From a plasmid: 64,000 bases of DNA. This document shows, piece by piece, positions 2,301-22,381 of this stretch. The notes under the pieces are model-generated. The model was not told where the DNA came from. It was given only the letters and a program-made list of their open reading frames with translations, and did no database searches. Location: the sequence record CP132319.1; one strand, given 5' to 3'. The translations under genes were made by a program, and so were the position numbers. How positions within the stretch are numbered: the stretch's first letter is position 1; every line of letters begins with the position of its first letter.

Positions 2301-2311
2301 GTTTGCCTCCC

Positions 2312-3305: not shown

Positions 3306-3809
3306 TCAATTTGTAGGGAGCGATGAGGCACTTGGAGGGAGGTCGGCAGCATTGTCAGCAAGCGGATGCGCTTCGAGATCTGCGATCAGCGACTTCATTT
3401 CACCGATCTCCCGGACCTGAGCTTCGATGATCCCGTCAGCCAGCTTGCGCACCCGCGGATCTCTGATGTGCGCGCGTTCGCTGGTCATGATGGCGATGGA
3501 ATGATGGGGGATCATCGCCTTCATGTAGCTGACATCGTAGACGGTCTCCTGGCTGCGCACGAGCCAAAGGGACCCGGCAAAGACCAAAACGCTGACCGCG
3601 ACAATGACGGCATTGGCAGTCTTGTTCTTATACATTGACCACATGAAGCCGATCATGATGATCGCCATGACCGCGCCCATCAGTAGCGCCATCCACGTCC
3701 TGGTCTGGCTGTAGGTAACGTGATCGAGGGCATACGTATTCAGGTACATTAGACCAAACATGATCACCGTCGAGGTGACGATCATCGTGGCAAAGCGTCC
3801 ATAGGACAT
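3306..3809 (-). CDS. DUF305 family protein (metal-stress associated)
   Basis: N-terminal TM segments and a MIPHHSIAIMTSE-type HH motif. Last gene of the rcnR-like operon. Confidence 0.7.
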   Translation of the reverse strand: MSYGRFATMIVTSTVIMFGLMYLNTYALDHVTYSQTRTWMALLMGAVMAIIMIGFMWSMYKNKTANAVIVAVSVLVFAGSLWLVRSQETVYDVSYMKAMIPHHSIAIMTSERAHIRDPRVRKLADGIIEAQVREIGEMKSLIADLEAHPLADNAADLPPSASSLPTN

Positions 3810-3824
3810 GGGAATCTCCTTCCT

Positions 3825-4565
3825 CTACTTGATAAGCATCCAGACCGCCATCGCGACCATCATCAGGTTTTCAGTTAATGAGATGAAGCCTAAGGGGACA
3901 TTGCTGTCGCCGCCGACGCAGGCGCATTTCAGTTCACGGCGCTCAATGTAGACGGCCTTCAACACCGAAACGGCACCGATAGTCCCGATCACCAACGCGA
4001 CCGGGATAGCCAGCCACAACAGAAAGCCGGCGATCATCAGGATCCCGGCAAGCGCTTCCCCGAATGGATAGAGGTAGGCATAGCGGACCCAGCGCTGGGC
4101 CAGCAGGTCGTAGCCGAGGAACATGTTGGAGAAGCTCTCGACGTCCCGAAGCTTCAGGATCGCAAGTATACACATGGAAATCGCGATAAACCATTCTAAG
4201 GCACGAGCGGTTAGAACGTCGCTAAACGCCGCCCAACTGGCTGCGAGGGCCATCAGCGCGGCCATGGCAAACACCGCGATCACCGGCTGATAGGTGACAG
4301 CCTTTGGATCGCGAACGGTTTTGCCGAAATGACGAAGCAGATCGTCGTAGCCGCCGACCCGCTGCCCATCGATGAATGTCTGGGGTGTTGTCTCAACCTC
4401 GTGCTCGGCCTTGAAGGAATCGGTCTCTTCGCGGGTTTTCAGCCAGTTGTCGTCAACAGAGAAACCCTCGCGTTTCAGCAGATCGAGGGACTTCAAGCCA
4501 AACGGACAGATGTGGTCGGGCATGACCATCCGATAGATCGTCGCTCTGCGCGAATGAGCATTCAT
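3825..4565 (-). CDS. glutaredoxin-domain protein fused to a MauE/DoxX-like membrane domain
   Basis: N-terminal CPFG glutaredoxin active site (MPDHICPFGLKSLDLLKREG), C-terminal 4-5 TM helices with a KCACVGG motif. Start taken at MNAHS, which has a GAGGTGA RBS. Confidence 0.65.
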   Translation of the reverse strand: MNAHSRRATIYRMVMPDHICPFGLKSLDLLKREGFSVDDNWLKTREETDSFKAEHEVETTPQTFIDGQRVGGYDDLLRHFGKTVRDPKAVTYQPVIAVFAMAALMALAASWAAFSDVLTARALEWFIAISMCILAILKLRDVESFSNMFLGYDLLAQRWVRYAYLYPFGEALAGILMIAGFLLWLAIPVALVIGTIGAVSVLKAVYIERRELKCACVGGDSNVPLGFISLTENLMMVAMAVWMLIK

Positions 4566-4584
4566 CCGATCACCTCTAATATCT

Positions 4585-4860
4585 CTAGCGCCTTGCGCGA
4601 TCGAACAGCTCGACGAGTTCGTCCAATTTCTGCTGTTGCTCACTCGCATCGCCGGACTTGATTGCATCCGCGACGCAGTGAGCCGCGTGATCACGAAGAA
4701 TCTCGCTCTCAGCTCGGCCGAGGGCTGCTTTCACTGCCTGGATCTGATGCAGGATGTCGATGCAATAGCGATCGTCAGACACCATTCGCGCCAAACCCTG
4801 GACCTGACCGGCAATCCGGTTTAACCGAACGATCTTGGCCCGCTTTCTGTCGCCGCACAT
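4585..4860 (-). CDS. RcnR/CsoR/FrmR-family metal-sensing transcriptional repressor
   Basis: 91 aa with an LNRIAGQVQGLARMVSDDRYCIDILHQIQAVKAAL signature (DUF156) and a conserved Cys/His. Confidence 0.8.
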   Translation of the reverse strand: MCGDRKRAKIVRLNRIAGQVQGLARMVSDDRYCIDILHQIQAVKAALGRAESEILRDHAAHCVADAIKSGDASEQQQKLDELVELFDRARR

Positions 4861-4870
4861 CGTTACCTCT

Positions 4871-4889
4871 CATACCCTAGGGGAGTATG
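4871..4889 (-). promoter_or_regulatory. putative RcnR/CsoR-type operator (AT-flanked G/C tract)
   Basis: CATACCCTAGGGGAGTATG lies 10 bp upstream of the repressor start. It resembles the TACT-G6-N-AGTA type-1 site architecture. Confidence 0.45.
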
Positions 4890-4992
4890 TTCAACGATCG
4901 CGGTCCGCCATTGTTCCCTTACGACAGCGAAGACTTCGCCCGTACCGGCCCAAAGCGACGCCTAGGTTATGCAGTAAGGGCGAAAAGAGCGT

Positions 4993-6126: not shown

Positions 6127-6233
6127 TTCTCTATTATGAGAAAAACATCCGATAATGCAAGATTATCGTTCGTTTTTATCTGTCGACGGGCGCGGCGGTT
6201 TATGCGCCAGATACTGGCTCAAAGCGCCGTCTT

Positions 6234-7202
6234 GTGGTACTGCTCAGCATGGTCTCACGCGCACGAATCATCCCCGATCCCCCGCCCATCTTCCCACTCC
6301 CGCCAGATTGGGCGCGGGCCGCCGGCGAGCGGCAAGGCGCTGGCGATGCGGAGCTTTTCGCCGGCGCGGCGCTCGCGGCTATCCACCCGATCGCCCGCAG
6401 CGAGCATCCGCTGGGACAGCTCTGGCGGCAGCGCCTGGCGCTGTCGGCCGCAGAGGCCGTCGTCCGCTGGCAGGGGCGCACGGAAGACGCCGCGACGCTG
6501 CGCGATCATCTCTATCTGACCCGCCCCGGGGACGATCCGGGGCCGGCTGGCCGGCTGCTGCAGGCCTGGAGGGCGCTGGGCAGAAAATCCTCGCTAGGGC
6601 CGGCATCGCTGAATGGCGAATGGCCGGTGATCTTCGCCGAGTTTTTGTCGGTCATGATCGACGAGCCGGCGCAGGAGGCGATCAACGCCGCACTGACGGC
6701 GAGCGTCGGAACCAGGAACCCGATCGAGGCGGCGAGCACGACGGCCGCGGCCAGCCTACACCTGCGGCCTGATAGCCGGCCGTTGGCACTCTGGCTCGCG
6801 GACGCGGTGCTTGCCCGGCGTCTGAACTGGCCGGTCCCGGTGCCACTCTTCGCGGCGCATCTGAAGGGGGACGACCTGCGCCTCGCCGCCGGTCCGCGTG
6901 CCGATCCGCAGCGGTGGCGGACCGCATGTGCCTTCGCGTATGGGCGAGGAGCAACAGCGGCGTTCGATCTTTACGCCGATCTGGCGCGGCGAACGGCACA
7001 GCTGCTGGCCGTGGCGCCCCAATTGCGCGGCAAGGACGCTGACGTCGTGGTGGCCACGCTGATCAGCGAAGATGCTCAGGCCGCGCGGCCGGTCTGGACG
7101 GCCAGCGACCGCTCCAGCCGTCGGCTGTTCGAGCGGTTGGTGGCGCTCGGCGGTGCGCGCGAGCTGACCGGACGGCCGACGTTCCGGCTTTACGGATTGT
7201 AG
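6234..7202 (+). CDS. DUF1403 family protein
   Basis: About 320 aa Ala/Arg-rich protein immediately upstream of an ScpB-like gene (4-bp spacing), the arrangement seen for DUF1403 in alphaproteobacteria. Confidence 0.55.
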   Translation: MVLLSMVSRARIIPDPPPIFPLPPDWARAAGERQGAGDAELFAGAALAAIHPIARSEHPLGQLWRQRLALSAAEAVVRWQGRTEDAATLRDHLYLTRPGDDPGPAGRLLQAWRALGRKSSLGPASLNGEWPVIFAEFLSVMIDEPAQEAINAALTASVGTRNPIEAASTTAAASLHLRPDSRPLALWLADAVLARRLNWPVPVPLFAAHLKGDDLRLAAGPRADPQRWRTACAFAYGRGATAAFDLYADLARRTAQLLAVAPQLRGKDADVVVATLISEDAQAARPVWTASDRSSRRLFERLVALGGARELTGRPTFRLYGL

Positions 7203-7205
7203 CCG

Positions 7206-8033
7206 ATGGGACGGCGGCCACAATCGACCGAGGGGCTGGACACTGAACTGGCGGATCTGCCGCCGGAGTTGCGCTGGCGCGAATGGATGGGCCGGGTCGA
7301 GGCGGTGATTTTCGCGTCGTCCGAGCCGGTGAACCGCGAGACGCTGACGCAGTTGGTCGGGCGCGACTGCAGCATCGACCTGCTGATCGACGACATCCGC
7401 GACGAGCTGCGTGACCGGCCTTATGAGCTCGTCTCCGTGGCCGGCGGCTGGCAGCATCGGACCCGCATCCGGTTTGCTGATGCGATCCGCCGTGTCACCG
7501 GTGTCGAGCAGGAAGGACGCTCATTGTCGCAAACCGATCTGCTGGTGTTAGCAATAGTCGCCTATCACCAGCCGATCACCCGACACGAGATTTCCAAGAT
7601 CATCGGAAAGGAAGTCAGCCGTGATAGAGTTGCTCACATTCGCTCTTTGGGTTTTCTTTCCTCGGGTCCGCGCAGTCCGCAGCCGGGCGCTCCTTACACG
7701 CTGGTCACGACACGGACCTTCCTGTCACGCTTCGGGTTAGGGACTTTGCGCGACCTGCCGAACCTCGAATTGCTCGAAGATGCCGGCCTGCTGAGCAGGG
7801 ACAGGAGGTTCGATGGCGACATGCCGATCGCATCGGACGAACAGGACGAACAAGCCGACTTCGAGGACGACAAGCAGCGAGGACTACCAGGCTTCGGATC
7901 GCTGACCATTCACAGGCTTTGCCCGGATCCGGGAAAGGGGATTCAGGTTGAGAATCTAGATCTACGGGTATTGACCCTGCAGTGGCTACAGGCCGTAGCA
8001 CCCTTTCTTCATGCGAATCAGGGCTCGGACTAA
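7206..8033 (+). CDS. scpB: ScpB-like segregation and condensation protein B homologue
   Basis: The winged-helix motifs EAVIFASSEPV, SQTDLLVLAIVAYHQPITRHEISKI and PYTLVTTRTFLSRFGL. Confidence 0.75.
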   Translation: MGRRPQSTEGLDTELADLPPELRWREWMGRVEAVIFASSEPVNRETLTQLVGRDCSIDLLIDDIRDELRDRPYELVSVAGGWQHRTRIRFADAIRRVTGVEQEGRSLSQTDLLVLAIVAYHQPITRHEISKIIGKEVSRDRVAHIRSLGFLSSGPRSPQPGAPYTLVTTRTFLSRFGLGTLRDLPNLELLEDAGLLSRDRRFDGDMPIASDEQDEQADFEDDKQRGLPGFGSLTIHRLCPDPGKGIQVENLDLRVLTLQWLQAVAPFLHANQGSD

Positions 8034-8034
8034 A

Positions 8035-9096
8035 ATGATCGAGGCAATACTCCACCGGCTCGGGCCGCTCGTCTTGTTTGTGCTGCTTGTCGCCGGACTT
8101 AACGGCTGTACCACCATGAGCCTCGACGATATCGGCGATCCGTCGCCGAAAATTCCGGTCAAACTCGTCGGAGAGATGGCAAAGAAAGGGATGACGCCGG
8201 AGAGCCCAGTGCTGATACGGATCTTCAAACAAGAAAGCGAGCTCGAGATTTGGAAGCAGGATCGGACCGGTCGCTACGCACTTTTGAAGGTGTATCCGAT
8301 GTGCCGATGGTCAGGAAAACTCGGCCCGAAAACCCGGACCGGCGATCGGCAGGCGCCCGAAGGATTTTATCATGTCTCCACAGGCATGCTGAATCCCAAG
8401 TCGCAATTTTATCTATCGTTCAACCTTGGCTATCCGAACCGCCTCGAGGCGGCACTGAATTACACCGGCGAAGCTCTGATGGTCCACGGCGCTTGTTCTT
8501 CGTCGGGATGCTACGCGATGACCGACCAAGGTGTCGGCGAAATCTACGCCCTCGTGCACAGCGCACTCGCCGGTGGCCAAGACAAGTTTCAGGTGCAGGC
8601 ATATCCGTTTCGCATGACCGTGGAGAATATGGTGGCCAATCGCAGCGATCCGAACTTCGCGTTCTGGAAAAACCTGAAAGAAGGTTACGACGCCTTCGAA
8701 TTTTCCAAGCGGCAGCCAAAAGTCGCGGCGTGCAATCGTCGATATGTTTTCAACGCCGATTTCGACAGGGACCCTACCAACCCCCTTGCTGCCTGTCCCC
8801 CTCTTAAACAGGCTATAGATCCGACCCTTTCCGCCAAAGTTCAACAAGAGGATCAGAAACTGACCGCGCTGCTCGACAAGGATTCTCCTGCGACCGTGAC
8901 CGCCTATGCTGACGGTGGGATGCACTCCAGCTTCCGCGAACTGCTGAAGCAAAACGGCGCCGACAAGCTTGCCCAGAAAATCTCGACCATTAAGTACCCG
9001 ATCAGCCGTCCAGACGCGGCCTTGGCGGACCCTTACCAGGGCGAGCCTTGGAAACCGGCGCTTAGCCGTTCCGAAAAGGACAGAGACGCCGATTGA
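8035..9096 (+). CDS. L,D-transpeptidase family lipoprotein (YafK-like)
   Basis: Lipobox LVAGLNGC, then a catalytic-type motif MVHGACSSSGCYAMTD. Confidence 0.6.
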   Translation: MIEAILHRLGPLVLFVLLVAGLNGCTTMSLDDIGDPSPKIPVKLVGEMAKKGMTPESPVLIRIFKQESELEIWKQDRTGRYALLKVYPMCRWSGKLGPKTRTGDRQAPEGFYHVSTGMLNPKSQFYLSFNLGYPNRLEAALNYTGEALMVHGACSSSGCYAMTDQGVGEIYALVHSALAGGQDKFQVQAYPFRMTVENMVANRSDPNFAFWKNLKEGYDAFEFSKRQPKVAACNRRYVFNADFDRDPTNPLAACPPLKQAIDPTLSAKVQQEDQKLTALLDKDSPATVTAYADGGMHSSFRELLKQNGADKLAQKISTIKYPISRPDAALADPYQGEPWKPALSRSEKDRDAD

Positions 9097-9341
9097 TGGG
9101 GCAGTTCTTCACCTGAAGTTCAATTTGCGCGAGCATGGAACGCGCTCAACGAGGGAACGATTGTCTTTTATCTCGGCTACGCTGGCTCTTCACGTTTGTG
9201 GCGCGGTTTCGTCTAGGCGTATTTTCTTGCCCAGGTGATATCCATCAGGTCCTCGACCGGGACGGGGAAGTTCTTCAAGGCTGAATGTAAACGCTCCACA
9301 TCGCCAGCATGTTCTTTAGTCACGCTTCGGCAAATTGGCGA

Positions 9342-9370
9342 TTGACCCTGTAGCCGCTACAGGCTGTAGA
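9342..9370 (+). promoter_or_regulatory. MerR-family type promoter/operator (copy a)
   Basis: TTGACC followed by the dyad CCTGTAG-CCG-CTACAGG and a 19-bp -35/-10 spacing. Same half-sites as copies at 11394 and 14480. Confidence 0.5.
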
Positions 9371-9586
9371 CCTAAGCTCGAACGAATCTGACGAAGGAAG
9401 CCTATCCAAGAGATGCGGCGGGGTCCCATTTCGCGGCATTCAGTCCGTCGAGCAATCTTTGTTTGGCGCCAGCCGAGAAGCGGGACTAACTGCAGCGACG
9501 GCGCGGGGCGACATCGGCGCGCGGTGTGGGCGCCTCGCGCTCGACTTCCACTAACGATCAGGCCCAGCCAATGAGGGGAAATCATA

Positions 9587-10108
9587 TTGCCGACTAGTTC
9601 CGTTAGACATCGAACCGTCTGGATTGCGATCGCTTTTGTCCTCGCGCTTCTTTTCGACATCGCGACAAAGTGGCTGATCGTTAACGTCGTCATGGTCCCG
9701 CCGCGGACGATTAAGCTTGTGAGCTACTTCAACCTGACACTGGGTTTCAATACCGGCGTCAGTTTCGGAATGTTCAGCGATATCTTCTTTGAGCGTCCGT
9801 TATTGCTGGCCACCATAAAGACCGTCATAACCATCGGGCTGATCGTCTGGGCAATGCGAGCGGATCGGACGTTGGAAGCGACTGCGCTCGGTTTGATTGC
9901 CGGTGGGGCGGCCGGAAATATTCTTGATCGCGTGTGGCATGGCGCCGTCACCGACTTTCTCGATTTTCATATCGGGACTTGGCATTGGCCCGCTTTCAAC
10001 ATGGCAGATGTCGCGATCACCATCGGGGCAGCGCTGCTTATCGCAGGCTCGATCTTTTCTTTTGAGCCCGCACGCACACCCGGACCGTCCAGTACCGAGA
10101 AGCGCTGA
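9587..10108 (+). CDS. lspA: lipoprotein signal peptidase II
   Basis: Four TM segments with the GNILDR...DFLDF...PAFNMAD motifs. Confidence 0.85.
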   Translation: MPTSSVRHRTVWIAIAFVLALLFDIATKWLIVNVVMVPPRTIKLVSYFNLTLGFNTGVSFGMFSDIFFERPLLLATIKTVITIGLIVWAMRADRTLEATALGLIAGGAAGNILDRVWHGAVTDFLDFHIGTWHWPAFNMADVAITIGAALLIAGSIFSFEPARTPGPSSTEKR

Positions 10109-10193
10109 ATGAAGACGTTGTCGGGTTTCAGCCGCACGCGACGCTGGACCAGTGCATCGGCTTTCTATGTGCAGAAATAATGGGAAAACTTGA

Positions 10194-10799
10194 ATGAGCG
10201 AGAAACACCGCGAGGACGAAATACGGCTCGACGCGAGAAATGCCTCCGAGCGAACGACGCTTGTCTGGGTCCTTGCCATCAATCTGTTGCAAGTGATCGT
10301 CGCCGGCGTCGTTGGCGTCTTCGCTGACTCGACCGGTCTTCTGGGAGCAGCCCTCGATAATATGGGCGACGCTGGCGTTTATGCCATCAGCCTTTACGCC
10401 GTCGGTCGGACGGTAGTGGCAAAGGTGCGTGTTGCGCGCCTGTCCGGAATCCTGCTGATCGCCCTGGGTCTGGCACTTTTCGTCGAGGTAGGGCGTCGGT
10501 TTTTCGTAGGCGCCGAGCCGATTGGCTTGGCCATGATCATTACCGCCTTCATCAATGCCGCGCTGAATGTCATTTGCCTGAAGCTTCTTCGATCGCATCG
10601 CGATCAGGGCGTTCATCTGAAGGCGTCGTGGATTTTCACGACGAACGATATGATCGCCAATGCCGGCATTGTCGTTTCGGGCGCAGCGGTTATGTTCTTC
10701 GCTTCTCCTTATCCGGATCTGGTTATCGGGGTGTTGGTTGCAGGCATCGTCCTGCGGGGTGGCTGGGAAATCCTGGAAGAGGCGAAGGACGCATCTTAG
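10194..10799 (+). CDS. cation diffusion facilitator-type divalent metal exporter (short form)
   Basis: Six TM segments. Co-oriented with lspA downstream of the MerR-type operator. Confidence 0.7.
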   Translation: MSEKHREDEIRLDARNASERTTLVWVLAINLLQVIVAGVVGVFADSTGLLGAALDNMGDAGVYAISLYAVGRTVVAKVRVARLSGILLIALGLALFVEVGRRFFVGAEPIGLAMIITAFINAALNVICLKLLRSHRDQGVHLKASWIFTTNDMIANAGIVVSGAAVMFFASPYPDLVIGVLVAGIVLRGGWEILEEAKDAS

Positions 10800-10982
10800 C
10801 GGCCTGCAATGTAGGAGATCGGCGTTCATTGCAGTTCACGACGCTGGTCGGCAATTCGCCTGCCGCCACAGACGCATTGGAACGAGGGCCTCAAACAGTC
10901 GAATGCGCTCTCTGCCTGCGCCGGCCACCCACTTCCCAGCCGCCGCTTTACATCAAAGCGGCTTTTGAATCTGTGTTGGCCC

Positions 10983-11390
10983 CTAATGCTTCGGCGAAAG
11001 AGAATCGATGATGCGGCAGTCGGCGACCGTTCCACAACTACACTGGTCGATAATACTGTCTAGTTCCGCCTTCAACGCCTGCAGGTCGCGGATCTTGCGC
11101 TCGACCTCGGCGCGATGCTCGTTGGCAATTTCGTCGACCGCCATGCATGACTGGTCACGGTCGTCACTCAGCCTCAGAAGACCGCGTACCTGATCGAGGG
11201 AAAATCCAAGGTCGCGCGCGCGACGGATGAAGCTCAGTCGATTCAGGTGCGCATGGTCATAGGCGCGGTAGTTGCCCTCGGTGCGGCCCGGTTCGGGCAG
11301 CAAACCGTTCTTTTCATAAAAGCGGATCGTTTCAACCTTGGTGCCGGTTTTCTTGGCAAGATACCCGATTGTCAGAATGTTTGGCGACAT
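10983..11390 (-). CDS. MerR-family heavy-metal-responsive regulator (CadR/ZntR/PbrR-like)
   Basis: N-terminal HTH (TIGYLAKKTGTKVETIRFYEKNGLL), a dimerisation helix and a C-terminal Cys cluster CSCGTVADC. Divergent from the ATPase gene. Confidence 0.85.
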   Translation of the reverse strand: MSPNILTIGYLAKKTGTKVETIRFYEKNGLLPEPGRTEGNYRAYDHAHLNRLSFIRRARDLGFSLDQVRGLLRLSDDRDQSCMAVDEIANEHRAEVERKIRDLQALKAELDSIIDQCSCGTVADCRIIDSLSPKH

Positions 11391-11393
11391 GGC

Positions 11394-11425
11394 TTGACCC
11401 TGTAGTTGCTACAGGCCTCATGTAA
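11394..11425 (+). promoter_or_regulatory. MerR-family type promoter/operator (copy b)
   Basis: TTGACC plus the dyad CCTGTAG-TTG-CTACAGG in the divergent regulator/ATPase intergenic region. Confidence 0.6.
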
Positions 11426-11456
11426 GGCGCCAGTTCGTAATTGTCGAGGTGACGTC

Positions 11457-13592
11457 ATGGCTTCCAGCGCGTTGAAATTGAAGATCAAGGGCATGGATTG
11501 CGCTGCCTGCGCAATGAAGATTGAAAACGCGATGAAGCGCTTGCCAGGCGTCAGCGACATCAATGTCAATTACAGTCAGGAAAGCATGGTCATCATGCTG
11601 GATAAGGACAGGACCTCGCCGCAGACTGTCGAGGACAAGATCAAAGGGCTCGGCTTCACCCCAATTTCAGCGGGCGCGGACAATCAAGCTGGTGCCAGCC
11701 AGCTCCCGGACTACCACGACCAGGCATGGTGGAAGGGTAAGAAGGGGCGTCTCGTCATCTTCACTGGCGCGATGTTTGCAGTTGCCTGGAGCATCGCCCA
11801 CGTATCTCCGGACTGGGGTCAGATCGCTTACTCGGTAGCGGCGCTGATCGCCATCGTTCCGTTCGCAAGACGTGCCTTCGTCGGTGCTGTCTCCGGAACG
11901 CCGTTTAGCATCGAAACGCTGATGACGGTTGCCGCGCTCGGGGCGTTGCTGATTGGGGCCGCCGAGGAGTCGGCGGTCGTAATCCTGCTGTTTGCCGTTG
12001 GCGAGCTTCTCGAAACCATCGCGGCCGGCCGCGCCCGGGCTGGTATCAAGGCATTGATCGATCTTGTCCCAAGGACTGCCTTTCGCGAGCGCGATGGCGT
12101 GGTCGAGAAGGTTGCAGTAGAGGAACTGGCGATCGACGACATAGTCGTCGTGCGGCCCGGCGATCGTGTTCCCTCCGATGGCAAAGTCACGCAGGGCTTT
12201 TCCGAACTCAACGAGGCTCCGGTGACAGGTGAGTCCGTTCCGGTCGCCAAGAACGTCGGCGACAAGGTCTATGCCGGCAGCATCAACACCAATGGCGAGC
12301 TTCGGGTGGCGATCAGTCATGTCGCGGCCGACAATACAATCTCGCGCATCATTCATATGGTCGAGGAAGCGCAGTCGTCGAAGGCACCAATGGCACGGCT
12401 GATCGATCGCTTCAGCGCCTGGTATACGCCGGCGGCTATGGTGGTGGCGGCGCTGGTCATCGTCGTGCCGCCGATCTTCTTCGGCGGCGAGTGGGCGACG
12501 TGGATCTACCGTGGCCTCTCCACGCTCCTGATCGCCTGCCCCTGTGCGCTGGTCATCTCCACGCCGGCGGCCATAGCGTCCGGACTTGCGGCCGGCGCTC
12601 GCAAGGGTCTGCTTATCAAGGGCGGCGCGGCACTTGAGACGCTCGGAAAGGTCAAGACCGTCGCCTTCGACAAGACAGGAACGCTGACCCGCGGCCGACC
12701 GCAGGTCACGGATGTGTTGGCAATTGTCGGGACAGAGGCCGATGTGCTGGCCCGCGCGGCCGCCGTCGAACGGAACAGCAGCCATCCGCTAGGCGTCGCG
12801 ATTGGTGAAGCGGCGGTCGCAAAAGGCTTATCTGTGCCGGCAAGCTTCGGCGGTGCCAAGGCAACGCCCGGAAAAGCGGTTACTGCGCGGTTGAAGAACG
12901 GCTTCGTCTCCGTCGGGTCTCCCCGATTTGCCGCCGAGCAGGCCGTACTCGATGACGAATTTGCCCGGCGGATCACCTACCTTGAGGAAGAAGGAAAGAC
13001 GGTCGTCGTTCTGATGATGAACGGCAAGATTGAGGGCCTGATCGCGCTCAGGGACGAGCCGCGGGACGACGCCGCAACTGCCATCCGGCATCTGCAGGAT
13101 ATCGGCGTCAAAACTATCATGCTCACCGGCGACAATCAGCGCACGGCAATAGCGATAGGATCGGCGCTCGGACTGGACGTGAAGGCGGAACTACTTCCGG
13201 ACGCCAAGCTTGCCGAGATCTCGCGCCTCAAGACGCAAGCGCCCATCGCCATGATCGGCGACGGTATCAATGACGCTCCGGCGCTCGCCACCGCTTCGGT
13301 CGGGGTGGCAATGGGCGGAGGAACCGATGTCGCGCTGGAAACCGCCGACGCCGCGCTGCTTCGCGACAAGGTTATGGGAGTGGCCGATCTCATTGCCCTC
13401 TCAAAGGCGACGCTTGGCAACATCTGGCAAAATATCGGGCTCGCTCTTGGTCTCAAGGTCATTTTCCTCGGCACGACGCTTTTCGGTGTTACCACGCTTT
13501 GGATGGCGATTCTGGCTGATACGGGGGCGACGGTCCTGGTAACAGCCAATGCACTTCGCCTTCTTCGCCATCGCCGCCGTGATATCGAGTAG
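11457..13592 (+). CDS. P1B-2 type heavy-metal translocating ATPase (ZntA/CadA-like, Zn/Cd/Pb)
   Basis: N-terminal HMA domain (GMDCAACA), CPC transport motif (ACPCALVIS), and the DKTGT, GDGINDAP and HP motifs. Confidence 0.9.
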   Translation: MASSALKLKIKGMDCAACAMKIENAMKRLPGVSDINVNYSQESMVIMLDKDRTSPQTVEDKIKGLGFTPISAGADNQAGASQLPDYHDQAWWKGKKGRLVIFTGAMFAVAWSIAHVSPDWGQIAYSVAALIAIVPFARRAFVGAVSGTPFSIETLMTVAALGALLIGAAEESAVVILLFAVGELLETIAAGRARAGIKALIDLVPRTAFRERDGVVEKVAVEELAIDDIVVVRPGDRVPSDGKVTQGFSELNEAPVTGESVPVAKNVGDKVYAGSINTNGELRVAISHVAADNTISRIIHMVEEAQSSKAPMARLIDRFSAWYTPAAMVVAALVIVVPPIFFGGEWATWIYRGLSTLLIACPCALVISTPAAIASGLAAGARKGLLIKGGAALETLGKVKTVAFDKTGTLTRGRPQVTDVLAIVGTEADVLARAAAVERNSSHPLGVAIGEAAVAKGLSVPASFGGAKATPGKAVTARLKNGFVSVGSPRFAAEQAVLDDEFARRITYLEEEGKTVVVLMMNGKIEGLIALRDEPRDDAATAIRHLQDIGVKTIMLTGDNQRTAIAIGSALGLDVKAELLPDAKLAEISRLKTQAPIAMIGDGINDAPALATASVGVAMGGGTDVALETADAALLRDKVMGVADLIALSKATLGNIWQNIGLALGLKVIFLGTTLFGVTTLWMAILADTGATVLVTANALRLLRHRRRDIE

Positions 13593-14008
13593 GAGCAACT
13601 GGAAAGGAGGCCGATGCCCTGCTTTCCGGATCTACAGCGCTTTCCGAGAAATTCGAAATTCATCAATCGACCCTCGTTAAGGGGGTCGCCAAAATGCGTC
13701 AGTTCGAAGATGCGATCGAAATAATGCCGGGAGAAACCCTAGCTTTGAGGGCGGGCGCATCGCACATCATGTTTGCGAAGCTTAGGAAGCAACTGGCGGC
13801 AGGGGAGCGCTTCGCCGTCAGTCTCAACTTCAAGAACGCTGGCTCGACAACCGTGGACTTGGCTGTCCAGGGGCTCGGGGTTTCCAAGCCCGCCAAAGCC
13901 CATGACGACGCAGGCCGAAGGCTGACTGACCGTGCTGAAGATTGTCCGCACCGCTGCTTAGTTGCCGGCGCGATTCCTGTCGCGATCTTAATCGGCGCCT
14001 GGCCCTGA
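13593..14008 (+). pseudogene. PCu(A)C copper chaperone homologue, 5'-truncated (no signal peptide, no start codon)
   Basis: The frame opens immediately after the ATPase stop. It carries the H...M...HIMF copper-binding motifs (FEIHQ...MRQFEDAIEIMPGETLALRAGASHIMF) but lacks the N-terminal ~40 aa. Confidence 0.5.
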
Positions 14009-14211
14009 TGCCGCCGCCCGCGGGGCGGGAGCGTGCAACCTGCGATCGCCACAGGTCTCCAGGTGCTCTTATCCTCTCGACGGCCTGTCTGTCAGGTCAG
14101 GAACTCGCAATAGAACCAATTCGTGCTGAGCGAGGTCGAAACCGAGAGACAGCCGCGGTGTCAGGCCGGATGTAGAAGAGGTCGACCGGCCTGACGGAGA
14201 CGTCGGGGCGC

Positions 14212-14421
14212 TCAGTTCGAGACCGTGTATCCGAGGTCCACAACCGTCTCCTGCAGTATGTCGGCGCCGATGATCTCGGGATCGATCTGAACGATCGCCC
14301 TAGTGCTATCGAGTGAAACGTTGACGTCCAGCACGCCGGGAAGCGCGCGTAGGCCCTTCTCGACCTTTGCGACACAGCTCGCGCAGTCCATTCCGACCAC
14401 ATTCATTTCTACAGTTTCCAT
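14212..14421 (-). CDS. copZ: CopZ-like heavy-metal-associated domain metallochaperone
   Basis: 69 aa with the MNVVGMDCASCVAKVEKGL HMA motif. Confidence 0.8.
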   Translation of the reverse strand: METVEMNVVGMDCASCVAKVEKGLRALPGVLDVNVSLDSTRAIVQIDPEIIGADILQETVVDLGYTVSN

Positions 14422-14479
14422 CTGAAATCCTTTCAGGACTAAGCTGACGTGAGTTAAGTTTCCCAACGCGTCAAAACTT

Positions 14480-14506
14480 TGCACCCTGTAGCGGCTGCAG
14501 GGTCAA
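14480..14506 (-). promoter_or_regulatory. MerR-family type promoter/operator (copy c)
   Basis: On the minus strand, TTGACC plus the dyad CCTGCAG-CCG-CTACAGG, 55 bp upstream of copZ. Confidence 0.5.
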
Positions 14507-14791
14507 CCCAAAGGGCTCACGGTTCCTAGAAATTTTTGGGCCCTTCGATCATTTGCCGCCAAGCCAATGTCCGGGAGGCATCCGCAGCCAATGAAGCGCC
14601 GTTGATCCAGTACCACTCTGCATCGTGCTACGTACCGAGTTAAAAACCTAGGAACGCAGATCAGAGCTATAAAGCCCCAGATTGAGGTGTTTAGCAGGGC
14701 CTCTGCCCTGCACGCTTAATCAGATGGTGGTGGAACCGGGTCACGCTTCATACCGGATGCTATGCGATATGTTTGCCGGCGGGCATTGTGA

Positions 14792-15640
14792 TTACTCTGG
14801 TGTGACCGGCAGTGCTCGCTTGTGTGCGGTCGCTGTGTACATGGTGAGGATTCGCTCGCGAGCTGGTTCCGTGATCACCTTACCCTCGAGAAAATCGTCA
14901 ATCTCGTCGTAGGTGACGCCGTAAGCCTCCTCGTCAGGACGCAGCGGCGCATCGCTTTCTAGGTCGGCGGTCGGCACCTTGTCGATCAGTTCCTGTGGCG
15001 CTCCGACGTGCTTTGCAATTGCACGGACGCGGCGCTTGGTAAGACCCGAAAGTGGAAGGATATCCGCAGCGCCGTCTCCGAATTTCGTGAAGAACCCCAT
15101 CAGCGCCTCGGCGGCGTGATCCGTACCGATCACCAAGCCGCCGACGGCGCCCGCCAACGCGTATTGCGCAATCATGCGCTGACGTGCCTTGATATTGCCG
15201 AGGTGGAAATCGACCCTCTCTACCTCAAACAATTCTCCTGCCTGACGACGGATCTCTGCAAGCATGGCATCGGCAGCCGGTTTGATGTCGATGGTGACGG
15301 TTCGATCGGGACGGATCGCCGCTAAGGCTTTCTGCGCATCGGCTTCATCAGCCTGAACGCCATACGGGAGCCGCACTGCGACGAATTCCGCTTTGTGGCC
15401 GTGCTCGCGCAGGCGGTTTGAAGCGGTCTGGGCCAGGATGGCGGCGGTCAGGGAATCCACGCCGCCGCTGATGCCAAGGACAAAGGCCCGTAATGCCCTA
15501 GTGCGAAGGTAATCGGCCAGAAACGCGATCCGACGTTCTGTCTCTGCTGCTGCATCGAAGCTCGGTGCGACGCCGAGTGCGTGGATGATATCGGCCTGTT
15601 GATGCAGCAAGGTCGTTCCTTCGTTTGACGAACGCATCAA
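14792..15640 (-). CDS. nadE: NH3-dependent NAD+ synthetase
   Basis: SGGVDS PP-loop plus conserved NadE blocks (FVAVRLPYG, GTDHAAE). Confidence 0.85.
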   Translation of the reverse strand: MMRSSNEGTTLLHQQADIIHALGVAPSFDAAAETERRIAFLADYLRTRALRAFVLGISGGVDSLTAAILAQTASNRLREHGHKAEFVAVRLPYGVQADEADAQKALAAIRPDRTVTIDIKPAADAMLAEIRRQAGELFEVERVDFHLGNIKARQRMIAQYALAGAVGGLVIGTDHAAEALMGFFTKFGDGAADILPLSGLTKRRVRAIAKHVGAPQELIDKVPTADLESDAPLRPDEEAYGVTYDEIDDFLEGKVITEPARERILTMYTATAHKRALPVTPE

Positions 15641-15855
15641 TAGCTAAGCCCAGGCGCGGTGACGTCAAGGCCTTTCATAGGGGCTGATCAATTCCCTCGA
15701 TGTCGGTCATCTGTTTCGCGTTCGTCAGTTGGGCTGGAAGGCGTCTACCCGGGAAGCGGCAAGCTTACAGCGGAAAGTTGCCTGTTGCAGCGCGTGGTCG
15801 TGGCTTAATTTGTGTGACCAATGGCCGAGGCCGTCGTGAGGATCCGGCCATTAGG

Positions 15856-17880
15856 TCATTCAGCAGCCTGCAGACTGCGCCTCTGGTTCTCGGTTACAGC
15901 ATGATCCGCTTCGGATGCGGCTGGCAGTCGCCATCCCTTGATCAGCCCATAGACGGCCGGAATGACGACCAGCGTCAGCAGCGTCGACGACACCATGCCG
16001 CCGATCATCGGTACGGCGATCCGTTGCATGATCTCCGATCCCGTGCCGGTCCTCCACAGGATCGGCACGAGGCCGGCCATGATGGCGGCGACGGTCATCA
16101 TCTTCGGTCGGACGCGCTCGACCGCGCCGACCATGATCGCCCGATTGAGGTCCGGCTTCGAGAAGGAACGACCCTCCTGTTCGCAGGCTTCGCGTTGCTC
16201 CTTCAGGGCGTGGTCGAGATAGATCAACATGATCACCCCGGTTTCCGCCGCCACGCCTGCAAGGGCAATGAAGCCGACGGCGACCGCCACCGAGGCGTTG
16301 AAGCCCATCCACCACATCAGCCAGATGCCGCCGACCAGCGCGAACGGCAGCGACAGCATTACGATGACAGTCTCCGTCAGCGCCTTGAAGTTCAGGTAGA
16401 GCAGCAGGAAGATCAGGGCCAGGGTCAGGGGAACGACGACGGCCAGTCGTGCTTCGGCCCGTTGGAGATATTCGAACTGACCGCTCCAGGCGACGGAATA
16501 GCCTGGAGGCATCGTCACGCTCCTTGCCACTGCCTGCTGGGCTTCGGCGACATAGCCGCCGAGATCGCGGTTGGCGATGTCGACGTAGATGTAGACGGCG
16601 AGCTGGCCGTTTTCGGTGCGGATGGTTGTCGCTCCGCGCGTCAGCTTGACGTCCGCGACCTCGCCGAGAGGAACCGTCCCGCCGCCCGGCAGGGATATCT
16701 GCACGTCCCTGGCGATCGACTGCGGATCGCTTCGCGAGGCCCGTGGATACCGTATTGCCACGCCATATCGTTCCCGGCCTTCGACCGTCTGGGTAACGAC
16801 CTCGGAGCCCAGCGCCATGCCGACAACGTCCTGGACATCGTTGATGGTCAGCCCGTAACGGCCGAGCGCCGTTCGATCGGGAACGATGTCGAGGTAGTAG
16901 CCGCCGATCACCCGCTCGGCATAGGCGCTCGACGTACCGGGGATTGTCTTCAGCACGCTTTCGATTTGGCGAGCGACTTTTTCCATCTCGCCGAGATCTG
17001 TACCGTAGACTTTAACCCCGACGGGCGTTCTGATCCCGGTCGACAGCATATCGATGCGGGCGCGGATCGGCATGGTCCAGGCATTGGAGACGCCGGGGAA
17101 CTGCAGGGCGGCGTCCATCTCCTGTTTCAGGCTGTCGGTGGTGACCCCCGGCCGCCATTCCGACTTCGGCTTCAGGGTGATGATCGTCTCGAACATCTCC
17201 GTCGGCGCCGGGTCGGTGGCGGTCAGCGCCCGCCCGGCCTTGCCAAAGACGGTTTGGACTTCCGGGAAGGACTTGATGATGCGGTCCTGCGTCTGCATCA
17301 GCTCGGCCGCCTTGGTGACCGATATGCCGGGCAAGGTGGTCGGCATGTACATCAGCGTGCCCTCGTCGAGATTGGGCATGAACTCGCTACCGATATGCTG
17401 GACGGGCCAGGCAGTGACCCCGAGGATGACGAGCGCCGCCAGAATCGTCAATGTCTTGACCCGCAACACCCCAGCAATGACGGGGCGGTAGATCCAGATC
17501 AGGAACCGATTGAGAGGGTTCTTGTGCTCGGGAACGATATAGCCCCGAACGAAGAGGATCATCAGTGCAGGCACAAGCGTCACCGATAGCAGGGCGGCAG
17601 CAGCCATCGAGAAAGTCTTGGTGAAGGCGAGCGGCCCGAACAGCCGGCCTTCCTGCGATTCCAGTGTAAAGATCGGCAGGAACGACACGGTGATGATCAG
17701 CAGGCTGAAGAACAGCGCCGGCCCGACCTCGCTCGCCGCCTCTATGAGGATTTCCACCCGTGGCTTGTCAGGCGGCGCACGCTCGAGATGCTTATGGGCA
17801 TTCTCGATCATGACGATCGCCGCGTCGATCATCGCGCCGATGGCGATAGCGATGCCGCCGAGGCTCATGATGTTTGCACC
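15856..17880 (-). pseudogene. cusA: cusA/czcA RND pump gene lacking its 5' third (homology starts near CusA residue ~390)
   Basis: The translation aligns with CusA from SLGGIAIAIGAMIDAAIVMIEN to the C-terminus. Upstream in-frame residues are unrelated and overlap an opposite-strand gene remnant. Confidence 0.8.
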
Positions 17881-17899
17881 GATCCCGGTTCGGGCAGAG

Positions 17900-18100
17900 G
17901 TCGCGGACCTGTCCATGCTGTCGGCGCACGCCGACGCAAACGAGCTGATGCGCTGGCTGTCCGGCTTCCGTCGGCCGCCGTCCCGCGTGTTCATCGTGCA
18001 TGGTGAAGACGATGCCTCCGAAGCGCTGCGCGTGCGGATCGACCGCGAGCTTGGATGGAACGCAGTCGTCTCACGCCAGAATCAGGCTTTCGACCTATGA
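17900..18100 (+). pseudogene. C-terminal remnant (~65 aa) of an MBL-fold / beta-CASP hydrolase
   Basis: SAHADANELMRWL...RVFIVHGEDDA motif-C region. Upstream residues of the ORF are antisense to cusA, which marks a deletion junction. Confidence 0.5.
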
Positions 18101-19629
18101 CGATCAACAACGTCGAACCCGAGGTTCCTTCTCAGCCGACGCTACGCGTGCGGCGCCTGCGGCTGCACACTCAGCACCAGGCCGTGGTGGTGATGCGCAC
18201 CGATTGCCATGTCTGCCGCTCGGAGGGTCTGTCCGCGCGCACCCAGGTCCTCGTCTCGATCGGCGCGAGACAGGTACAGGCAACGCTCTTTCAGGTCGAA
18301 GGAGATGCATTGCTCGCTCAGGATGAAGTCGGTCTTTCTGAAACAGCCTGGCAGATCCTCGGCGTTAGCGAGAATGACAATGTGACGGTGACCCATCCTC
18401 CGGCCGTGGAGTCTCTGACGAGCGTGCGCCGTCGCATATATGGCAATCGCCTCGACGCGCACGCCTTTGCCGAAATCGTGAGCGACGTGGTCGCAGGCCG
18501 CTATACCGAGGTCCATCTCGCCGCCTTTCTGACCGCCAGTGCCGCGCTTCCTCTCGACGAGAGCGAGACTGTTGACCTCACGCGCGCCATGGTCGATGTC
18601 GGCGACCGGATGAGCTGGAATGCTCCGATCGTTGTGGACAAGCACTGTGTCGGCGGGTTGCCGGGCAATCGAACCACGCCGATCGTCGTCGCGATCGTGG
18701 CCGCCAATGGCCTTGTCATGCCGAAGACGTCTTCGCGCGCGATTACCTCGCCAGCCGGCACCGCCGACACAATGGAAACGCTTGCCCCTGTCGACCTCAG
18801 CATCGAAACCCTTCGACGCGTCGTGGAAGCAGAAGGCGGATGCATCGCCTGGGGCGGGGCGGTGCATCTCAGCCCCGCCGACGACATTTTCGTCCGGATC
18901 GAACGCGAACTCGACGTGGATACCGAGGGACAGCTTGTCGCTTCCGTCCTTTCAAAAAAAATCGCCGCTGGCTCGACGCATGTGGTTATCGACATCCCGG
19001 TTGGGGCAACCGCCAAGGTGCGCAGCGAAGCGGCCGCCGATCAGCTCGCCAGTCGCCTCAGCGCCGTCGCTGCCCGTTTCGATCTGGCCCTGACCTGCGT
19101 CCAGACCGACGGTTCGCAACCCGTCGGGCGCGGCATCGGCCCAGGTCTAGAAGCCTTCGACGTCCTGGCGGTTCTTCAAAACGCGCCGGATGCGCCGGAC
19201 GATCTGCGACGCCGCGCGATCCTGTTGGCGGGCGCCGCGCTTGAGATCGGTGGAAAGGCCGCAAAGGGGAAAGGTGAAGCGCTTGCGTTGGCGACCTTGG
19301 TCGACGGTCGTGCCTGGTCGAAGTTCATGGCGATCTGCGAGGCGCAAGGCGGACTTCGTGAGCCACCGAAGGCCGCACAGGTTCATCCGTTGATCGCGTC
19401 GCGCGCCGGCCGCGTCGTCCATATCAACAATCGCAAAATCGCCCGACTCGCCAAGCTCGCCGGAGCGCCGGAGTCGAAGGCGGCAGGCGTCCAAATGGCC
19501 GTCCGCCTCGGCGACGAGATCGCCAGCGGCCAGCCGCTTTTGCACGTTCACGCCGAGACGGCTGGTGAACTTGGCTACGCACTGGACTATGCCGCGCATG
19601 CAGGCGACCTTTTCGAGGTCGAAAGTTGA
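18097..19629 (+). CDS. thymidine phosphorylase family protein (long N-terminal-extension type)
   Basis: CVGGLPGNRTT, SRAITSPAGTADT and glycosyltransferase-family-3 blocks. ATGA overlap with the MBL remnant. Confidence 0.8.
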   Translation: MTINNVEPEVPSQPTLRVRRLRLHTQHQAVVVMRTDCHVCRSEGLSARTQVLVSIGARQVQATLFQVEGDALLAQDEVGLSETAWQILGVSENDNVTVTHPPAVESLTSVRRRIYGNRLDAHAFAEIVSDVVAGRYTEVHLAAFLTASAALPLDESETVDLTRAMVDVGDRMSWNAPIVVDKHCVGGLPGNRTTPIVVAIVAANGLVMPKTSSRAITSPAGTADTMETLAPVDLSIETLRRVVEAEGGCIAWGGAVHLSPADDIFVRIERELDVDTEGQLVASVLSKKIAAGSTHVVIDIPVGATAKVRSEAAADQLASRLSAVAARFDLALTCVQTDGSQPVGRGIGPGLEAFDVLAVLQNAPDAPDDLRRRAILLAGAALEIGGKAAKGKGEALALATLVDGRAWSKFMAICEAQGGLREPPKAAQVHPLIASRAGRVVHINNRKIARLAKLAGAPESKAAGVQMAVRLGDEIASGQPLLHVHAETAGELGYALDYAAHAGDLFEVES

Positions 19630-20150
19630 CGTGGCGGCTGTCCATTTGGATACGCCGGCACCGTCCGGCCGGCGCATTCTCGATCTACCAGCGCTTGATG
19701 CACTGGATGGTCCTTATCCTGTGTATCATCCAGGTCCCCACGGCCTGGGCGATCCAACGCACGCACATGGCGCACCTTTTCTTGAAACCTAAACCCTTCG
19801 ACCTTTTCCTGCATCAGGTTCACGCCTGGAGCGGATGGCTGATTATGGCGCTGGCGCTCAGTCAACTTATTCTGCGCTTCACATATGGCCGACCACCTCC
19901 GATCCAGGGCATGTCGGTGCTTGAGCGCATGATCGCAGGGGTCACTCATGCGGTGCTCTACGGCCTATTGCTCGCACTGCCGATCACAGGCACGATCGCT
20001 ATGTACGTGACGTTCCGCATCGCTTCCCTGCACAGCCTGCTGAGCTGGATGCTTCTGGTCGTTGCGACCACTCACGCCCTCGCTGCTCTGTGGCATCACT
20101 TCTGGCGTCGCGACGACGTGCTGCGGCGAATGATCAGGAACACGAAATAG
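19626..20150 (+). CDS. cytochrome b561 / Ni-Fe hydrogenase b-type cytochrome family membrane protein
   Basis: Four TM helices with conserved His. Translationally coupled to the upstream gene. Confidence 0.65.
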   Translation: MTWRLSIWIRRHRPAGAFSIYQRLMHWMVLILCIIQVPTAWAIQRTHMAHLFLKPKPFDLFLHQVHAWSGWLIMALALSQLILRFTYGRPPPIQGMSVLERMIAGVTHAVLYGLLLALPITGTIAMYVTFRIASLHSLLSWMLLVVATTHALAALWHHFWRRDDVLRRMIRNTK

Positions 20151-22260: not shown

Positions 22261-22381
22261 TGCAACGTCGGGGCGGCGCTTCGCCGCCCCGCACGACCTA
22301 AGCCTCAAACCTATGAGCAGGACGGCCGGCATGCAGGCTTCATCAATGGACAAAGGGTCGGCGAGGCTCTATTCTTTGCCC

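Follow-up and report, generated by a model that had tools for sequence, protein, structure and literature searches.

Gene content of the island

The window analysed here is a 64,000-nt stretch of the plasmid sequence in record CP132319.1, and between positions 7971 and 14506 it carries a mobile Zn/Cd/Pb island in which, judging from the sequence, a single CadR/PbrR-type sensor probably switches on four promoters. A metal regulon of this kind had been proposed in an earlier sequence-only reading of the window. The MerR-family operators (of the CadR/PbrR type), the pump and the inclusion of lspA and the CDF gene, which lie behind the same operator in relatives, were upheld, but the operators number four, a gene for an L,D-transpeptidase (LDT)-like protein had to be added, and the assignment of a CopZ was dropped. 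The genes and features of the island are as follows.

7971-8001, + strand: operator/promoter A, TTGACC-CTGCAGTGGCTACAGGCCG-TAGCAC; 33 nt separate the presumed -10 from the ATG at 8035
8035-9096, + strand: DpaA/YafK-like YkuD-fold (LDT) protein, 353 aa, a predicted lipoprotein
9342-9372, + strand: operator/promoter B, TTGACC-CTGTAGCCGCTACAGGCTG-TAGACC, followed by a leader of ~214 nt before the lspA start at 9587
9587-10108, + strand: lspA, lipoprotein signal peptidase II, 173 aa, TTG start
10194-10799, + strand: predicted short CDF-family transporter, 201 aa, membrane domain only
10942-10962, + strand: weakly supported terminator-like hairpin where the CDF and regulator genes converge
10983-11390, - strand: MerR-family regulator, 135 aa, with Cys82, Cys117, Cys119 and Cys125
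11394-11424, + strand: operator/promoter C, TTGACC-CTGTAGTTGCTACAGGCCT-CATGTA, divergent with the regulator gene; 32 nt separate the presumed -10 from the ATG at 11457
11457-13592, + strand: P1B-2 ATPase, 711 aa, with an N-terminal HMA domain and the motifs CPC, DKTGT, HP, GDGIND and ADTG
13619-14008, + strand: truncated remnant of a PCuAC (PCu(A)C copper chaperone) gene, with ~66 N-terminal residues and the signal peptide gone
14212-14421, - strand: stand-alone HMA protein (the former 'copZ'), 69 aa, GMDCASC
14476-14506, - strand: operator/promoter D, TTGACC-CTGCAGCCGCTACAGGGTG-CAAAGT; 54 nt separate the presumed -10 from the HMA gene start at 14421

Four copies of a CadR/PbrR-type operator

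The dyad CCTGTAG-N3-CTACAGG, with up to two mismatches allowed, gave four matches in the 64 kb, at 7976, 9347, 11399 and 14485, while 100 dinucleotide-preserving shuffles, used as the chance baseline, gave an expectation of 0.01 for the dyad alone and 0.00 for the dyad preceded by TTGACC. The complete element, TTGACC followed by CCTGYAG-N3-CTRCAGG, is present at 7971(+), 9342(+), 11394(+) and 14506(-), and this repeated element is real and far above chance. The copies read TTGACCCTGCAGTGGCTACAGG (7971-7992, +; 64 nt 5' of the ATG at 8035), TTGACCCTGTAGCCGCTACAGG (9342-9363, +), TTGACCCTGTAGTTGCTACAGG (11394-11415, +) and TTGACCCTGCAGCCGCTACAGG (14506-14485, -). The three operators named in the earlier reading were all confirmed, the copy at 7971-7992 having been overlooked, and site D differs from the dyad as then written by one mismatch. 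A looser scan of the window gave no fifth credible copy; the only other two-mismatch matches to the dyad in the window, at 11069 and 42960, lack TTGACC. A search of the Shinella plasmid NZ_CP132308.1 revealed no additional site.

Each of the four copies lies 5' of a gene start and is oriented toward that gene, and the -35 hexamer TTGACC is perfect at all four. The likeness among them is limited to ~25-29 bp, so the operators are not parts of bigger duplicated segments, and larger recent segmental duplications around them could be ruled out. None of these genes is preceded by a canonical sigma-70 promoter (spacer of 16-18 bp), and terminator-like matches in the region were no more numerous than expected from shuffles.

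The published CadR signal of the P. putida and P. syringae cadA genes is ACCCTATAG-(3)-CTACAGGGT, in a promoter of the form TTGACc-(19)-TtcAcT (Permina et al. supplement, PMC1526738). The window element has the corresponding 9-3-9 dyad ACCCTRTAG-N3-CTAYAGGGT within a 19-bp spacer after TTGACC and is, by its sequence, a CadR/PbrR-type MerR-family operator/promoter, equal to the published signal. At site D, 8 of 9 dyad positions pair and both outer arms fit the CadR consensus (ACCCT..AG, CT..AGGGT); the outer positions of the right arm deviate at sites A, B and C, reading GGCC or GGCT instead of GGGT. Sites A and B, which are 86% identical over 29 nt, have a third, inverted half-site after the right half-site (7985-7999 and 9356-9369, respectively); the resulting CTACAGG-CC-GTAG (A) and CTACAGG-C-TGTAG (B) each make up an additional small palindrome, overlapping with the presumed -10.

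The MerR-family regulator

The regulator gene is divergent with the P1B-2 ATPase gene, and its ATG at 11390 is only 3 nt away from the -35 of promoter C (11394). The predicted protein scored above the cut-offs of the Pfam families PF00376 (MerR), PF13411 (MerR_1) and PF09278 (MerR-DNA-bind), and comprises a helix-turn-helix region and a dimerisation helix. The best NCBIfam model was CadR-PbrR (TIGR02047) at 131.2 bits, short of the cut-off of 151.45, followed by CueR (128.8 bits) and MerR (120.9 bits); the regulators of two relatives' loci, L004 and L104 (compared loci are given L numbers), are likewise under all NCBIfam thresholds. Among solved structures, phmmer ranked P. putida CadR (6JGV, 1.4e-30) and PbrR691 (5GPE, 3.1e-30) best, and C77, C112 and C119 of CadR and C78, C113 and C122 of PbrR691 align with Cys82, Cys117 and Cys125 of the window protein.

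That this is the only MerR-family gene, as first read from the open reading frames, holds for the window, where tblastn gave no second match with E <0.1. A candidate second paralogue near 40.7 kb was rejected, as the tblastn match was at chance level and the open reading frames there are not MerR-like. No convincing candidate was found for a promoter of the regulator gene itself.

The recognition helix co-varies with operator type in a small but consistent set of sequences. A helix V/I-E-T-I/V-R is paired with CTRTAG/CTACAG operators in the window regulator, L004, L104, L107, the Hg-MerR of L082 and P. putida CadR, and V-P-T-I-R is paired with CTCAAG, CTAGAG or CTTGAG operators in L094, L100, L123, L136 and L142. 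The adjacent regulator is, on sequence grounds, the obvious and most likely candidate to bind all four copies.

Operators and gene order in relatives

With one genome taken per species, 36 alphaproteobacterial loci were found with a regulator 60-80% identical to that of the window, and in 34 of these the ATPase gene is directly preceded by the same operator. After the ATPase gene, and on its strand, come genes for a CDF, PCuAC and LspA in about 21 loci (L002-L005, L007-L009, L011-L024); a full reading of the open reading frames of L004 places SCO and CcdA genes between PCuAC and lspA. The short CDF gene that directly follows the ATPase gene in relatives encodes a protein 56-61% identical to that of the window. 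The maps of L016-L024, from nine genera, are indistinguishable, with the same coordinates and identities, which argues for horizontal spread of the cluster.

Three copies of the operator each are present in L002-L007 and L009-L015 (e.g. L004:8653, 8753, 9976), one before the ATPase string, one 100 bp off and facing dsbB-dsbA-like genes, and one directly before merR. Periplasmic disulfide-forming enzymes (DsbB-like plus DsbA/thioredoxin-like) thus appear, from the placement of these sites, to belong to the same metal regulon. Multi-operator regulons are, as far as the sequences indicate, normal in this clade, of which the window is a rearranged version.

The merR <-> ATPase-CDF-PCuAC-SCO-CcdA-lspA cluster of these relatives (L002-L024; Martelella, Nitratireductor, Aminobacter, Paracoccus) shares its operator with the window, and its products are 73-80% (regulator), 72-73% (ATPase), 56-61% (short CDF) and ~50% (LspA) identical to those of the window. 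The relatives have one operator for the whole string, or three where a dsbB-dsbA pair and merR join it, whereas the window has four units. In the window, lspA and the CDF gene have a promoter copy to themselves, SCO and CcdA have been lost, only a truncated PCuAC is left, and the LDT-like and HMA genes have been recruited.

The DpaA/YafK-like lipoprotein behind site A

The product of the gene behind site A has a signal peptide ending in LVAGLNGC, with Cys25 as the lipid site of a predicted lipoprotein, and the catalytic motif HGACSSSGCYAM, that is HGACSSSGC159-Y-A, with Ala two residues past Cys159. Ala or Asn, and not Arg, at this distance from the catalytic Cys is the signature of DpaA-like enzymes as opposed to transpeptidases (PMC8263019), and the window protein conforms to it; activity as a peptidoglycan meso-DAP protein amidase, releasing a protein bound to peptidoglycan as DpaA does, is a prediction from its sequence. 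The NCBIfam model NF040599 (LdtF_DpaA_YafK) matched residues 64-250 only, with E 5e-63 and 212.4 bits, missing the cut-off of 365, and Pfam YkuD gave 23.3 bits against a cut-off of 23.4. The catalytic motif aligned with that of the YkuD-domain protein of PDB entry 8IKR (E 1.4e-52).

Homologues with 49-72% identity occur on 162 plasmid records. Among 13 plasmid loci inspected, lspA was found within ~4 kb in seven, a MerR homologue in six and a P1B ATPase gene in six. A long-spacer promoter with an internal dyad precedes the LDT-like gene in L094 (TTGCAG-N19-TAGGAT), L095 (TTGTAG-N19-TATATC), L096 (TTGAAC-N19-TAAGGC), and L098 and L100 (both TTGCAC-N19-TATGAT). A metagenome scan added 80 LDT loci, 63 of which had an upstream flank of at least 1.2 kb; in 20 of these 63 a MerR homologue, mostly divergent, lies within 1.2 kb upstream of the LDT-like gene. 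The closest orthologues outside the island, in L107/L108, are 84% identical and have TTGACC-CTGTAGCGGCTACAGGTTG-TATGAA 63 bp before the start, directly preceded by a different MerR-family gene whose product is 43% identical to the window regulator. Since these orthologues carry the identical operator type at a matching distance, they support site A independently. In L104 (Methylobacterium pMaqPC1), the order is merR <-> ATPase-lspA-LDT-like, and its promoter, TTGACC-CTATAGTGACTACAGGGTG-CATGTA, has the odd -10 hexamer of site C at the same spacing.

Searches of the literature gave nothing relevant that links LDT/YafK proteins to MerR/CadR, cadmium or zntA, and the LDT-like gene behind MerR-type promoters is the only part of the system for which no description was found there. 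With a little less than even confidence, we propose that DpaA/YafK-like lipoproteins, often with a dedicated LspA, truly belong to MerR-type (CadR/ZntR-like) regulons throughout Hyphomicrobiales and are induced by metal. Cd/Zn/Pb stress would in that case be tied both to lipoprotein maturation and to the remodelling or repair of outer membrane-peptidoglycan links; metal resistance would then have an envelope arm, and the window would be one instance of it, in which one sensor serves efflux and envelope genes from four promoters.

Two further observations concern LDT-like genes in other loci. In metagenomic MerR <-> LDT-like divergons, a 32-nt block, AAGATTAACGAAGTTCTAAGCAATCGCTTGGA, is identical in 18 loci (e.g. 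L136:4822-4853), namely L123, L128, L130-L133, L136-L138, L140, L142, L143, L145, L147, L148, L151, L168 and L170. It lies ~100 nt 3' of the MerR-type promoter and ~150-180 nt 5' of the LDT start, is flanked by variable GC hairpins, has no counterpart in Rfam and does not occur in the window; a conserved leader RNA and the site of a second regulator are both conceivable. In L092 (A. tumefaciens pAtCFBP6624, 1-4954), genes for an ATPase, LspA, CcdA, UppP, a short CDF (78% identical to that of the window) and an LDT-like protein (72% identical) form one string; UppP is an undecaprenyl-diphosphatase and PbrB-like, and this pbr-like string links the window genes to a PbrB/PbrC theme.

lspA and the efflux genes

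The identification of lspA is well supported (Pfam Peptidase_A8, E 1.4e-34; TIGR00077, 121.1 bits against a cut-off of 73.95), and the RefSeq annotation of a 99.94%-identical copy of the island has the same coding sequence. A riboswitch or structured leader 5' of lspA was considered and rejected. Rfam gave no match at E up to 1 in the region 7000-16000, leader included; the fold of the leader (9378-9600) was no better than that of shuffled sequences (z = 0.38), and neither tblastx nor blastn found similarity between the leader or intergenic regions and other loci.

A metal-responsive MerR promoter in front of lspA had been called unusual, which precedents do not bear out. The pbrABCD operon, which PbrR controls, encodes the prolipoprotein signal peptidase PbrC, and a cadA together with a pbrC homologue is presumed to be under PbrR2 (PMC3431237). 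The orf1/lspA divergon of pWW0 was entered under CadR sites in a comparative study of 2006 (PMC1526738 supplement), and signal peptidase II in the cadA neighbourhood of two Mesorhizobium strains was induced more than 3-fold by Zn, alongside ccdA, as measured by RNA-seq and qPCR (PMC3668242).

The CDF gene is probably co-transcribed with lspA across a gap of 85 nt. Its product scored above the cut-off for Pfam Cation_efflux (48.2 against 26.6 bits) and under that for TIGR01297 (48.9 against 82.35 bits), covering profile positions 3-194 of 285, so that the C-terminal cytoplasmic domain is absent. The putative transport-site motifs, DNMGD in the second and NDMIAN in the fifth transmembrane segment, are unlike the usual HxxxD or DxxxD/HxxxD of Zn-CDFs, and the substrate is therefore uncertain.

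The Zn/Cd/Pb (P1B-2) assignment already given to the ATPase was supported by its motifs, with GMDCAAC, CPC, DKTGT, HP and ADTG at residues 12, 361, 405, 443 and 687, respectively, and by TIGR01512 (ATPase-IB2_Cd; 522 bits, cut-off 313.5). TIGR01525 was also above its cut-off (589 bits), NF008262 remained under its own (835 bits, cut-off 1005), and the cut-offs of the ZntA equivalogs were not reached. The Pfam match of the PCuAC remnant behind the ATPase gene covers profile positions 57-109 of 109 only, and its alignment to full-length neighbours in L094/L099 begins 66 codons into their coding sequences; the full-length L004 homologue has 191 aa.

For the stand-alone HMA protein, only the generic HMA domain was confirmed (Pfam HMA, E 3.9e-15). 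An Asp-Cys-x-x-Cys motif is characteristic of ZntA-type divalent-metal sites. The description of this protein as a CopZ-type chaperone did not survive: all NCBIfam CopZ models remained under their cut-offs (best 53.6 bits against 95), and its GMDCASC resembles the GMDCAAC at the N-terminus of the ATPase. From these features, the role of the pump's divalent-metal partner is more likely for it than that of a Cu(I) CopZ. In relatives L006/L010/L011, a similar dyad is followed by an HMA gene and then by a second ATPase gene.

Comparison with characterised systems

Among the closest characterised counterparts is CadR/PcadA of P. putida (6JGV, 6JGX), with the same operator, ACCCTRTAG-N3-CTACAGGGT, the TTGACC -35 and the 19-bp spacer. 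Like the window regulator, CadR forms a divergon with a P1B-2 ATPase and has three Cd-binding cysteines, which align. As given in PMC1526738, the P. putida regulon is a single cadR/cadA divergon, whereas the window has four promoters and includes envelope genes, and the window regulator lacks the C-terminal extension of CadR past the aligned region.

The pbrTRABCD/PbrR system of Cupriavidus metallidurans pMOL30 has a 19-bp MerR-type promoter, a P1B ATPase and PbrC, as the window does, and PbrR2 (Rmet_2303) of C. metallidurans, with cadA and a pbrC homologue, presents a similar pairing of pump and signal peptidase. In footprints PbrR protects the -35, the dyad and the -10, and the promoter becomes constitutive when its 19-bp spacer is shortened (PMC3431237). 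The pbr dyad, ACTCTATAGT-N1-ACTAGAGGGT, is unlike the N3 dyad of the window. The pbr operon also includes PbrB (a C55-PP phosphatase), PbrD and PbrT, all three absent from the window, and its lspA sits in the ATPase operon, while that of the window has its own operator and is paired with the CDF gene.

ZntR/PzntA of E. coli likewise combines a MerR-family sensor with a Zn/Cd/Pb P1B-2 ATPase bearing an N-terminal GMDCxxC. ZntR uses a 20-bp spacer and the dyad ACTCTGGAGTCGACTCCAGAGT (PMC1526738), against 19 bp in the window, and the ZntR NCBIfam models scored the window regulator lower than CadR-PbrR did. Within Rhizobiales, a precedent is given by Mesorhizobium metallidurans STM 2683 / STM 4661, with Zn-induced cadA, ccdA and signal peptidase II; that study defined no operator and did not mention an LDT-like gene (PMC3668242). 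E. coli DpaA (YafK/LdtF) shares with the window protein the YkuD fold and the catalytic Cys, in GCYAM, with Ala at +2; the window protein has an extra C-terminal region of ~100 aa. Copper inhibits E. coli DpaA with an IC50 of ~0.1 mM, and metal regulation of dpaA is not described in that work (PMC8263019).

Proposed regulon and alternative explanations

In the proposed mechanism, drawn by analogy with MerR, PbrR, ZntR and CadR, a regulator dimer would sit on the 9-3-9 dyad ACCCTGYAG-N3-CTRCAGG(G/C)N inside the over-long 19-bp spacer; once Cys82, Cys117 and Cys125 hold Cd(II), Zn(II) or Pb(II), the dimer would untwist the DNA, and RNA polymerase could then use the misaligned -35 and -10. Promoter A would express the DpaA/YafK-like lipoprotein, promoter B lspA and the short CDF exporter, promoter C the P1B-2 ATPase together with the dead PCuAC remnant, and promoter D the GMDCxxC HMA protein, which probably hands metal to the ATPase. 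Promoter C overlaps the start of the regulator gene, and this gene is probably autoregulated.

The products would form two arms, one for cytoplasmic export (P1B-2 ATPase, CDF transporter and HMA partner) and a thiol-dependent one in the envelope, with LspA acting on the lipid-modified +1 Cys of prolipoproteins and the DpaA-like lipoprotein dependent on its own Cys. Efflux would thereby be combined with reinforcement of the thiol-dependent periplasmic processes that the exported thiophilic metal would poison; in relatives, DsbB/DsbA, CcdA, SCO and PCuAC are placed behind these operators as well. Copper is known in E. coli to block the acylation of lipoproteins at their +1 Cys, to inhibit LDTs and to scramble disulfides (PMC6593411, PMC8263019). 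Four elements of this picture are inferences from the sequence comparisons and these analogies: that the regulator binds every one of the four sites, which metal is the inducer, that the effect is activation and not repression, and the physiological rationale.

The regulon is favoured because there are four copies of the operator against about none by chance, the CadR signal is matched, the ligand cysteines align and the arrangement is conserved in relatives. It is also favoured by the co-variation of helix and operator, the lack of canonical sigma-70 promoters, the Zn-induced precedent in Rhizobiales (PMC3668242), the recurrence of LDT-like homologues at MerR-type promoters or genes (L094, L095, L096, L098, L100, L104, L107/L108), and the poisoning by copper, in E. 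coli, of lipoprotein maturation, LDTs, DpaA and the formation of disulfides (PMC6593411, PMC8263019).

Several points weigh against it. The -35/-10 geometry of ~19 bp read earlier stood as to its perfect -35, but the -10 hexamers (TAGCAC, TAGACC, CATGTA and CAAAGT) are weak, T at position 6 being absent in three of the four. The spacer of site C is ambiguous and could be 19, 20 or 21 bp, site A is the weakest palindrome, with 6 of 9 pairs, and the ~214-nt leader between site B and lspA is unexplained. The metal specificity of the regulator is uncertain, because its scores are below all NCBIfam equivalog cut-offs and those for CueR and MerR are close. The copies of the island, being nearly identical, are no independent evidence of selection on the sites, and the protection of thiols is extrapolated from copper in E. 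coli to Cd/Zn/Pb in an alphaproteobacterium.

An explanation that draws on some of these points is that only the divergent site C, and perhaps D, works, sites A and B being decayed or serving repression only, with the LDT-like and lspA-CDF genes expressed by read-through or from unrecognised promoters. The poor palindrome of site A, the missing T at position 6 in the -10s of A and B, and the distance of 245 nt from site B to lspA speak for it, as do the CadR-type palindromes of Brucella, which lack a proper promoter (PMC1526738). We nevertheless regard it as unlikely, given that the LDT orthologue of L107/L108 has a better copy of the site A-type promoter at the same distance, the alphaproteobacterial mer promoter of L082 also has a -10 of the TAG type (TAGGGT) at 19 bp, a search for other sigma-70 promoters before the LDT-like or lspA genes gave none, and lspA and the CDF gene of relatives sit downstream of the same operator. 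Sharing of the four sites with host MerR-family paralogues encoded elsewhere, e.g. an alphaproteobacterial Hg-MerR, or their use mainly by such paralogues, seems quite unlikely. A mer operon in the same island in L082, L085 and L088 does have an operator with the same dyad and a MerR, 43% identical, with a VETIR-type helix (IETIR), another regulator with 43% identity lies by the same dyad before the LDT orthologue of L107, and the count of one regulator covers only 64 kb of the host genome. The tblastn search found no second MerR-family gene in the window, however, the island moves as a unit with exactly the window regulator, and cross-regulation among the PbrR paralogues of C. metallidurans is reported to be low (PMC3431237). 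That the repeats are ends of mobile elements or recombination sites (inverted repeats, res-like) and not operators is hardly credible: the island is mobile, with integrase, resolvase, Tn3-family and TniB genes at its flanks, and copy D is inverted relative to A, B and C, but all four copies lie 30-250 nt 5' of a start codon and are oriented toward it, the repeat equals the published CadR promoter down to its -35 hexamer and 19-bp geometry (PMC1526738), and the island, in the different hosts compared, does not end at the repeats.

A regulon under one CadR/PbrR-type sensor on a mobile island is known biology in kind; its multi-promoter layout and the recurrent DpaA-like member set it apart as a variant. 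Its description may be of use in the annotation of metal and co-selection islands in clinical and environmental Rhizobiaceae. The recurrent wiring of a DpaA-like enzyme and LspA to metal sensors suggests that Cys-dependent envelope processes in the periplasm are physiologically relevant targets of Cd/Zn/Pb, as they are of copper in E. coli, and four promoters with one sensor would make a compact system in which this idea can be tested.

Context and spread of the island

Positions 6150-22700 of the window are 99.94% identical to the Shinella sumterensis plasmid NZ_CP132308.1, and the left flank differs. Since the match starts only at ~6150, the window belongs to another replicon with the same island, and because the replicons differ, the cueR of NZ_CP132308.1 cannot be assumed for that of the window. 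In the assembly collection, 159 indexed blocks contain the identical regulator protein, wastewater metagenomes included. In ten contexts examined, the segment bounded by the LDT-like and HMA genes moves as a block and retains all four operator sites (10 of 10), with integrases, Tn3-family transposases, resolvases and mer operons as neighbours. The genes that flank it in the window were assigned as follows.

7206-8033, + strand: ScpB (Pfam/NCBIfam)
14792-15640, - strand: NadE (Pfam/NCBIfam)
15856-17994, - strand: C-terminal fragment of cusA (profile positions 389-1039 of 1051)

In L090, cusA is intact (1057 aa) with cusB upstream. The island of the window is a decayed copy, as its cusA is fragmentary and its PCuAC lacks the N-terminal third.

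Compared with the Shinella plasmid and other copies (ScpB 232 aa; L081:7308-8006), the window scpB has a 1-bp indel near 7873 that lengthens the frame to 275 aa, across operator A; this is either a real frameshift or a sequencing error. In L082 (11731-14699), L085 and L088, a mer operon (merR-merT-merP-…-merA) is inserted in scpB beside the island. The mer operator, TTGACC-CTGTAGTCGCTACAGGCAC-TAGGGT, has the same dyad as the four sites of the window, the MerR encoded there is 43% identical to the window regulator, and Hg/Cd cross-talk in these three hosts is possible.

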